A DNA stretch of 60,457 nucleotides from a virus (taxonomy: Duplodnaviria; Caudoviricetes). Positions 37,197 to 37,382 of this stretch are shown one piece after another. A model generated the notes under the pieces. That model was not told the origin of the DNA. It searched no databases and saw nothing but the letters and a program-made list of their open reading frames with translations. A program made the translations under genes and the position numbers. How positions within the stretch are numbered: position 1 is the first letter of the stretch; each line of letters begins with the position of its first letter. The stretch is from positions 1 to 60,457 of IMG/VR virus record IMGVR_UViG_3300037119_004150; one strand, 5' to 3'.

Positions 37197-37256
37197 CTCG
37201 ACTAGGCGAGGATAAATAGAAGTTAAGCCTAGTGCGGCCCCAATCGGGGCATCTTA
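37196..37256 (+). ncRNA. Pistol self-cleaving ribozyme
   Basis: P1 CUCG/CGAG, loop ACUAGG pairing with CCUAGU (pseudoknot), AUAAAUAG linker, P2 AAG/CUU, UUAAG, conserved GCG, P3 GCCCC/GGGGC, purine-U at scissile position. Confidence 0.85.
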
Positions 37257-37382
37257 CCCACCGCAGTAAGCTGCTGCAACAAGACCTTAAGGATTCCTGG
37301 TTTTGGGCTTGAGGAATCTAGGTTAGGGTTAGCTCCCCTGAACTGCAGATAGGCTCTGAGAGGACGCTCTCAGGGCTTTTCT
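37252..37382 (+). ncRNA. Candidate structured small RNA downstream of ribozyme cleavage site
   Basis: Several nested stems, no plausible ORF, ends in terminator. Confidence 0.5.
37351..37382 (+). terminator. Intrinsic terminator
   Basis: GCTCTGAGAG-GACG-CTCTCAGGGC-TTTTCT. Confidence 0.85.

Follow-up and report, generated by a model that had tools for sequence, protein, structure and literature searches.

Small RNAs derived from 3′ untranslated regions (3′ UTRs) are made by host RNases, and have conserved seed regions and demonstrated targets. They are described as sharing the terminator of the mRNA from which they come (PMC5502269). In phages, the nearest precedent for a ribozyme-matured small RNA is provided by the HDV-like theta ribozymes, which lie beside phage tRNAs such that the cut would define the end of the small functional RNA (PMC10879173). 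In addition, bacterial 3′-UTR ribozymes can influence expression in reporter constructs (PMC6765202; PMC5502269). In the twister and hammerhead reporters of Felletti et al., as described in these two articles, the ribozyme sits between the stop codon and the terminator, and its cleavage detaches the 3′ end and can alter expression. The pistol ribozyme (RF02679), which according to Harris et al. (2015; PMC4604425) comprises the helices P1, P2 and P3, a pseudoknot and a two-nucleotide junction, is a further self-cleaving class with many phage-borne members. A review gives the biological role of pistol ribozymes as still open (PMC6765202).

Here we describe a locus in a complete virus record of 60,457 bp (the window, that is, the whole stretch of DNA analysed) that resembles each of these systems in part. 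Its central element is a phage-borne member of the pistol family. The region after the ribozyme lies outside that family, and in the window the 3′ product would be short, non-coding and terminated. As in the twister and hammerhead reporters, the ribozyme is found between stop codon and terminator; however, those reporters involve other ribozyme classes and are partly engineered, whereas the present case is predicted from a natural sequence. Similar to the 3′-UTR-derived small RNAs, the fragment would represent the last ~130 nt of an mRNA, but no conservation was found for it and its 5′ end would come from self-cleavage. Compared to the theta ribozymes, which adjoin recognisable tRNAs in hundreds of examples as reported in PMC10879173, the neighbour of the window's ribozyme is unrecognisable and unique, and the tRNA-Leu of the window lies 1.2 kb off, behind another promoter.

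A promoter-rich region of a soil phage

The window originates from soil metagenomes: all 15 DNA runs that contain it are from soil, and no RNA run containing the stretch occurs among the listed sequencing runs. Its primase-helicase shares 39-45% identity with those of Curtobacterium, Microbacterium and Gordonia phages. An 834-aa ORF at 27319-29823 combines a family A DNA polymerase with a 3′-5′ exonuclease domain and an N-terminal uracil-DNA-glycosylase-superfamily domain. Between ~30 and 52 kb, the near-consensus promoter pattern TTGACA-N15-GATATAAT occurs in 13 copies, a count reached by none of 100 shuffles, and each copy stands at the head of a short cassette of small ORFs. The cassette of interest and the one behind it contain the following features.

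36623-36651, + strand: sigma-70-type consensus promoter (TTGACA and TATAAT 17 nt apart, TG ahead of the -10, 12/12 hexamer matches), one of the 13 pattern copies and a member of repeat family D1
36658-36942, + strand: ORF1, 94 aa
36945-37196, + strand: ORF2, 83 aa, a small conserved Cys/His protein with invariant C29, C41, C60 and H63
37415-37443, + strand: the following consensus promoter, in a promoter module of family D1
37450-37788, + strand: the next gene, 112 aa, Cys-rich, with homologues in loci L124 and L125

The ATG of ORF1 lies 6 nt past the -10 of its promoter, and the ORF1-ORF2 transcript is therefore probably leaderless. Over 66 nt, the promoter module at 37405-37470 is 80% identical to that at 36613-36678. 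The module takes in the first seven codons of each downstream gene, which encode MMIKYSD and MMNKYSD, respectively. The shared promoter and codons indicate duplication or recombination at promoters. Further copies of this 66-nt module are located at 38876-38941, 44562-44627 and 47464-47529; the ATG 6 nt past TATAAT suggests that the mRNAs of these cassettes are probably leaderless as well.

Other repeats of the window include a 50-nt element of family D7 in three copies (34555-34604, 43067-43116 and 46783-46832), with a conserved ATATAGGTCTAAGGCGG core. Families D8, D5 and D6 comprise 28-nt repeats that share a CCGTCTGGAGCC core and occur five or six times, dispersed over 46866-49184, and four head-to-tail 23-nt units ending in AGGGGCGGTT (49186-49287), the latter with an iteron-like look. 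The tRNA-Leu (anticodon TAA) occupies 38498-38580 in the next cassette downstream, and contigs of many other organisms pile up on it.

A predicted pistol ribozyme between the ORF2 stop codon and a terminator

The first base of a pistol match coincides with the last base of the ORF2 stop codon (TAA, 37194-37196). The match covers the model at full length (1-68), and its score, 55.4 bits, is above the gathering threshold (34.5). Reading the sequence against the model alignment assigned the following elements.

37196-37256, + strand: pistol self-cleaving ribozyme (RF02679)
37197-37200 (CUCG) with 37207-37210 (CGAG), + strand: P1
37201-37206 (ACUAGG) with 37228-37233 (CCUAGU), + strand: pseudoknot, 6 bp
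37220-37222 (AAG) with 37253-37255 (CUU), + strand: P2
37237-37241 (GCCCC) with 37246-37250 (GGGGC), + strand: P3

Besides the score, the element has P1, P3, a pseudoknot linking the P1 loop to the P2-P3 junction, and the two-nucleotide junction length of the family. Its P2 consists of 3 contiguous pairs, as at 43 of the 49 sites examined among the matches listed. The cleavage dinucleotide of the model falls on A37251/U37252, and the match thus predicts self-cleavage at this position and a 3′ product beginning at 37252, in agreement with the ribozyme-set 5′ end assigned by the first-pass annotation. The window has AU at the junction instead of the usual GU. Among the matches listed, junctions could be located at 87 of 124 viral pistol sites, with 41 GT and, as the second commonest, 7 AT. 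Harris et al. describe the GU as only “modestly conserved”, with variable identity and a strict junction length (PMC4604425).

Downstream of the predicted cut, the following elements were found.

37252-37352, + strand: non-coding tail, the body of the 3′ product, without ORF, Rfam family or homologue and with a chance-level fold
37353-37382, + strand: intrinsic terminator, made up of a G+C-rich hairpin (37353-37376; 10-bp stem, GACG loop) and UUUUCU

The terminator, a G+C-rich hairpin running directly into a U run as is typical of Rho-independent termination, has a predicted energy of -18.0 kcal/mol (37353-37376), and only 8 of 20145 24-nt segments of the phage fold as well as its core (37354-37377). 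It was recovered by our own terminator scan and is absent from the list of a stricter one. The claim of a strong terminator is well borne out by these values, and transcription is predicted from the hairpin to end at 37353-37382. A small ORF in the tail was rejected: the sole + strand frame of at least 25 aa that touches it has 26 aa and begins with a GTG inside the ribozyme, consistent with the annotated lack of a plausible ORF.

With an active ribozyme and a working terminator, the 3′ product would be a fragment of ~131 nt with a 5′-OH. The first-pass annotation took it for a structured, functional phage small RNA acting in trans (an RNA decoy, anti-defence RNA, antitoxin mimic or oligomerising RNA), with its ends provided by self-cleavage and the terminator. 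The promoter, pistol and terminator that form the architecture of such a unit are present. Alternatively, the fragment may be a by-product of cleavage within a 3′ UTR. The fold of the tail, its relatives and the placement of other pistols bear on this choice.

The tail folds at chance level

All pairings of the proposed three-way junction can be written on the sequence: CUUAC (37253-37257) with GUAAG (37266-37270) at the 5′ end, CUGCA (37274-37278) with UGCAG (37344-37348) as closing helix, GACCU (37283-37287) with AGGUU (37320-37324), GGAUUCCU (37291-37298) with AGGAAUCU (37312-37319), and AGGG (37325-37328) with CCCU (37336-37339). The energies nevertheless argue against a structured ~130-nt RNA, as they stay within the range of composition-matched shuffles. 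Without the terminator, the body (37252-37345) folds at -26.2 kcal/mol; shuffles average -26.0 ± 3.6, which gives z = -0.05, and 88 of 200 are at least as stable. An independent shuffle set gave z = -0.06. The z of -1.82 for the whole 131 nt is attributable to the terminator, since the body alone is close to zero. Moreover, the three-way junction structure lies at -25.6 kcal/mol, 1.9 kcal/mol above the optimum of -27.5 kcal/mol. The pair probabilities are 0.09 for the 5′ hairpin, ~0.1 for the closing helix and 0.36 for AGGG/CCCU, such that two of the five proposed helices are at ~0.1. The junction is therefore a writable fold but not the preferred one. Similarly, the complementary loops GGGCU (37305-37309) and AGCUC (37331-37335), proposed to kiss, are present, but shuffled loops offer an equally long run of 5 bp in 37% of cases. 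These values speak against a small RNA acting in trans.

One element of the tail is well predicted.

37283-37324, + strand: imperfect 13-bp hairpin, the sole well-predicted element of the tail, with pair probabilities of 0.6-0.8 and -13.9 kcal/mol

This hairpin is equalled or beaten by 832 of 20139 (4.1%) 42-nt segments of the phage. A stable hairpin in the top 4% favors a trans-acting RNA and counts against a by-product. In addition, the tail at 37262-37274 has a 13-nt perfect antisense match to 4937-4949, inside the ORF at 4497-5702. Such a match could point to a target in trans, but its E of 0.066 is about the chance expectation for a 60-kb search, and the match is probably due to chance.

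Further comparison placed the tail among the flanks of other pistols. Among the matches listed, and with only sites of GT or AT junction kept, the 94 nt after 48 located cleavage sites (window included) have a median z of -0.74, and the 94 nt before 49 pistols a median of -1.00. With a z of -0.05 or -0.06, the tail body is thus less structured than the median flank on either side. Very stable folds were found in the 94 nt after the cut of two other pistols, in L041 (z = -6.25) and L086 (z = -4.79), where no Rfam family is reported; judged by these predicted folds, they are better candidates for ribozyme-adjacent structured RNAs than the tail of the window.

The 5′ hairpin also bears on a reading in which the tail acts only in cis. 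It would serve as a spacer or insulator, so that the ribozyme can fold and cut ahead of formation of the terminator hairpin, or as a competitor for the P2 strand. In the latter case, CUUAC/GUAAG would capture that strand after cleavage, favoring release over re-ligation, or would throttle the ribozyme. As the first-pass annotation noted, CUUAC overlaps the 3′ strand of P2 (CUU, 37253-37255) and can pair with GUAAG. Since P2 has only 3 contiguous pairs, a 5-bp competitor could matter. The overlap and the pairing stand, but the refolding is poorly favored: the hairpin amounts to -2.0 kcal/mol, its 0.09 probability refers to the free tail, and 13% of shuffles hold a 5-bp partner for CUUAC within 40 nt. 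Most pistols, furthermore, lack such a tail and have the next ORF close behind. We consider a role in cis, in either form, unlikely.

No relatives of the tail were found

An Rfam scan of 36900-37700 at E<=10 returned only the pistol and chance-level rows, and a known RNA family in the tail was accordingly rejected. A degenerate pistol pattern retrieved at least 119 viral loci with at least 123 sites, and all 12 loci that were re-scanned score above the pistol cut-off. In the sequence after at least 123 other viral pistol sites, blastn and nhmmer found similarity only in the pistol core and nothing past the cut. A covariance model (R1), built from the tail with the structure proposed in the first-pass annotation, recovered only the window itself across 143 loci (1.3 Mb); the other rows have E values of 7.9 and 0.2. 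The closest ribozymes gave the same picture. A 36-position core pattern of the window is matched exactly at 12 further pistol sites, distributed over 10 viral contigs (one with two sites) and Cellulosimicrobium phage DS1, and the sequence downstream of all 12 is unrelated to the tail. The sole downstream likeness among them is between the two copies in one contig. The first-pass annotation had suggested looking for a conserved fold downstream of other phage pistols; blastn, nhmmer and model R1 detected none, the 12 nearest sites included.

Pattern scans with the tail hairpin gave zero matches in viral contigs. The 10 matches in prokaryote genomes, about the chance number estimated beforehand, were rejected, as none was confirmed by the model; the best scores 18.2 bits (E 0.2) at a pre-selected site. 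When 36600-37450 was compared to phage records by distant blastn, the sole match was to the pistol core, in phage DS1. Altogether, homologues with the same fold and covariation were found by none of blastn, nhmmer, model R1 and the pattern scans. The contigs from 4 of the 15 DNA runs are identical to the window where they overlap it, with no variants, and hence no covariation could be counted in the tail.

The tail was also compared with the rest of the phage. It belongs to no repeat family and its matches elsewhere are at most 13 nt, which rejects a repeated phage element. A common origin with the neighbouring 3′ UTR at 36472-36568 was rejected too, because a local alignment score as high as the observed 14 is obtained with 50% of shuffles. 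At that adjacent cassette boundary, a 97-nt spacer without ribozyme precedes the terminator and has a z of -0.58.

A functional RNA acting in trans thus appears improbable: no homologue was found anywhere searched, and the tail is absent from all relatives. The first-pass annotation itself held that a 3′ product that is unstructured, or not conserved next to homologous ribozymes, would speak against its proposal; in silico, the body is no more structured than shuffles and has no counterpart next to other pistols or in relatives. A particular form of this reading, a small RNA of new making, would be a 3′-UTR-derived regulator whose 5′-OH end is made by the pistol instead of a host RNase. It would be stabilised by this end and the terminator, and act in trans on a host or phage target through the hairpin at 37283-37324 or the loops. 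Its homologues would escape notice if it were too young or too fast-evolving. We regard this form as very improbable.

Pistol, tail and terminator form a lineage-specific insert

ORF1 has no homologue but itself in a search of 5.8 billion proteins; weak C-terminal tblastn matches occur in L123 and L126. ORF2 has nine homologues with 50-72% identity, and Cys29, Cys41, Cys60 and His63 are invariant across the 10 sequences, a pattern of conservation that marks ORF2 as a real small protein family. Neither the single-protein scan nor a scan with the ORF2 alignment found a relative in viral contigs. ORF2 had no match in cultured phages, and its alignment found no relative in prokaryote genomes. For the next gene (37450-37788), the single-protein scan of viral contigs found no relative. 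The conserved stretch C.CEDYPCCGHYD of the next gene is common to L124 and L125. ORF2 and the next gene are both small Cys-rich proteins of no known family, and may work together, as they are adjacent in relatives.

The pistol is absent from two related phages (53% and 61% primase identity), and their fetched loci have no match to ORF1, ORF2 or the tail. The interval from the HTH gene to the primase spans 3.8 kb in the window, compared to ~400 bp in L121. Six metagenome loci encode an ORF2 homologue, and none of them has a pistol at E<=0.1; two end too soon past the gene, leaving four that are informative downstream. In these four, neither ribozyme nor tail follows the ORF2 homologue. The homologue of the next gene overlaps the stop of the ORF2 homologue by 1 nt in L125 and follows after a 2-nt gap in L124. 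L123 has a different, overlapping ORF at this position, and L126 a promoter-like site and a new ORF. As the two genes adjoin in L124 and L125, the segment 37197-37449 is an insert between them. By this comparison, the pistol and its tail, the terminator and the promoter make up an insert specific to this lineage, in an accessory region that is mosaic and rich in promoters. The unrooted comparison suggests that the insert was gained rather than lost. The 80%-identical promoter modules with their seven shared codons fit recombination at promoters.

Such recombination at the repeated promoter modules could by itself have brought in pistol, tail and terminator jointly, with the ribozyme as a hitch-hiker that is inactive or neutral; the phage would then depend on neither the cut nor the fragment. 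None of the relatives has the block, the region is mosaic, the promoter and first seven codons are duplicated (36613-36678 and 37405-37470), and the junction is AU, not GU. By contrast, the score is well above the cut-off, the pseudoknot, P1 and P3 are intact, and the core pattern recurs exactly at 12 further pistol sites. In addition, the pistol begins exactly at the stop codon, like 15 others, which argues for a maintained function of the ribozyme. A hitch-hiking ribozyme is therefore hardly probable.

Pistol placement across viral genomes

The position at the stop codon is shared by other viral pistols. Among the matches listed, 116 sites (L002-L120) have enough upstream sequence, and at 51 of these the conserved TCG is preceded, at a distance of no more than 12 nt, by the end of an open frame of at least 60 codons, compared to 15 of 615 random positions. 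The stop codon and the ribozyme share one base at 15 sites, the final base of the former being the first of the latter; the window and phage DS1 have the same arrangement. Pistols thus appear to be linked to the end of the gene before them. Part of the excess reflects pistols filling short intergenic gaps, because the random control lies mostly inside genes. A pistol start at the stop codon was not found reported in the literature searched; the alignments and supplements of Weinberg et al. 2015 may already cover the genes around pistols.

The downstream side of the window differs from that of other viral pistols, where an ORF is usually close behind and a terminator-like site is rare. Among the matches listed and with GT or AT junctions only, an ORF of at least 50 codons follows the cut after a median of 41 nt, and such an ORF is present within 400 nt at 39 of 46 sites; in the window the distance is 198 nt. 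Terminator-like sites were no more frequent in the 300 nt downstream of pistols (6 of 118, among the matches listed) than upstream (6 of 115) or at random positions (11 of 369). The terminator finder, junction locator and next-ORF finder behind these counts are crude scripts. By these counts, the terminated non-coding 3′ product of the window is an unusual, isolated case among pistols. An arrangement so atypical, with a terminator that is rare elsewhere and a distant next ORF, might have a purpose; this counts for a trans-acting RNA and against a by-product.

Several other pistols were recorded in this survey. In Cellulosimicrobium phage DS1 (L129, MW590223.1; 1503-1975), the TAA of a hypothetical gene marks the start of an unannotated pistol (66 bits), with the stop/pistol overlap at 1501-1507. 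The ~400 nt downstream contain no + strand ORF of at least 45 aa, have a z of -0.53 and are unrelated to the tail of the window. In L046 (11463-11599), 12 nt separate a pistol (39.8 bits) from the tRNA before it, both within a large phage tRNA array that includes a tmRNA; the placement resembles that of the ribozymes adjoining phage tRNAs. In L031, a 191-kb viral contig, a pistol and two type II hammerhead ribozymes share one strand over a span of 1.4 kb (1903-3328).

A probable cleavage by-product of a 3′-UTR ribozyme

Altogether, we think it probable that 37252-37382 is the 3′ cleavage by-product of a 3′-UTR pistol on a short two-gene phage transcript. A by-product is the most likely reading, ahead of a new small RNA, because the fold is at chance level and no relatives were found. 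We propose that transcription would start at the consensus promoter at 36623 and end at the intrinsic terminator 37353-37382, and that the pistol abutting the ORF2 stop would cut between 37251 and 37252. The cut would part the coding RNA, then ending in a folded ribozyme with a 2′,3′-cyclic phosphate, from the terminator hairpin. The cut would probably thereby control how long the ORF1-ORF2 message lasts and how much it yields. The ~100-nt tail would be an unconserved spacer, and the 131-nt fragment would have no function of its own.

Some observations weigh against a by-product. Besides the rare terminator (6 of 118 among the matches listed), the distant next ORF (198 nt against the median of 41 nt) and the hairpin at 37283-37324, a 5′-OH fragment that ends in a terminator hairpin could be long-lived, and only four relatives are informative downstream of ORF2. 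The unit of promoter, ORFs, ribozyme, small RNA and terminator outlined in the first-pass annotation is retained here as promoter, two ORFs, pistol, non-coding tail and terminator, while the structured functional small RNA within it is unsupported.

If the cut released a working small RNA, this would be the first clear job for pistols, but the evidence here points the opposite way: the pistol of the window looks tied to its upstream gene, and the downstream piece looks like scrap. By its predicted features, the locus adds one more case to a known ribozyme class, here placed in a 3′ UTR. It offers a clean natural pistol exactly between a stop codon and a terminator, and is therefore a good test bed for whether self-cleavage in the 3′ UTR tunes the expression of phage early genes.
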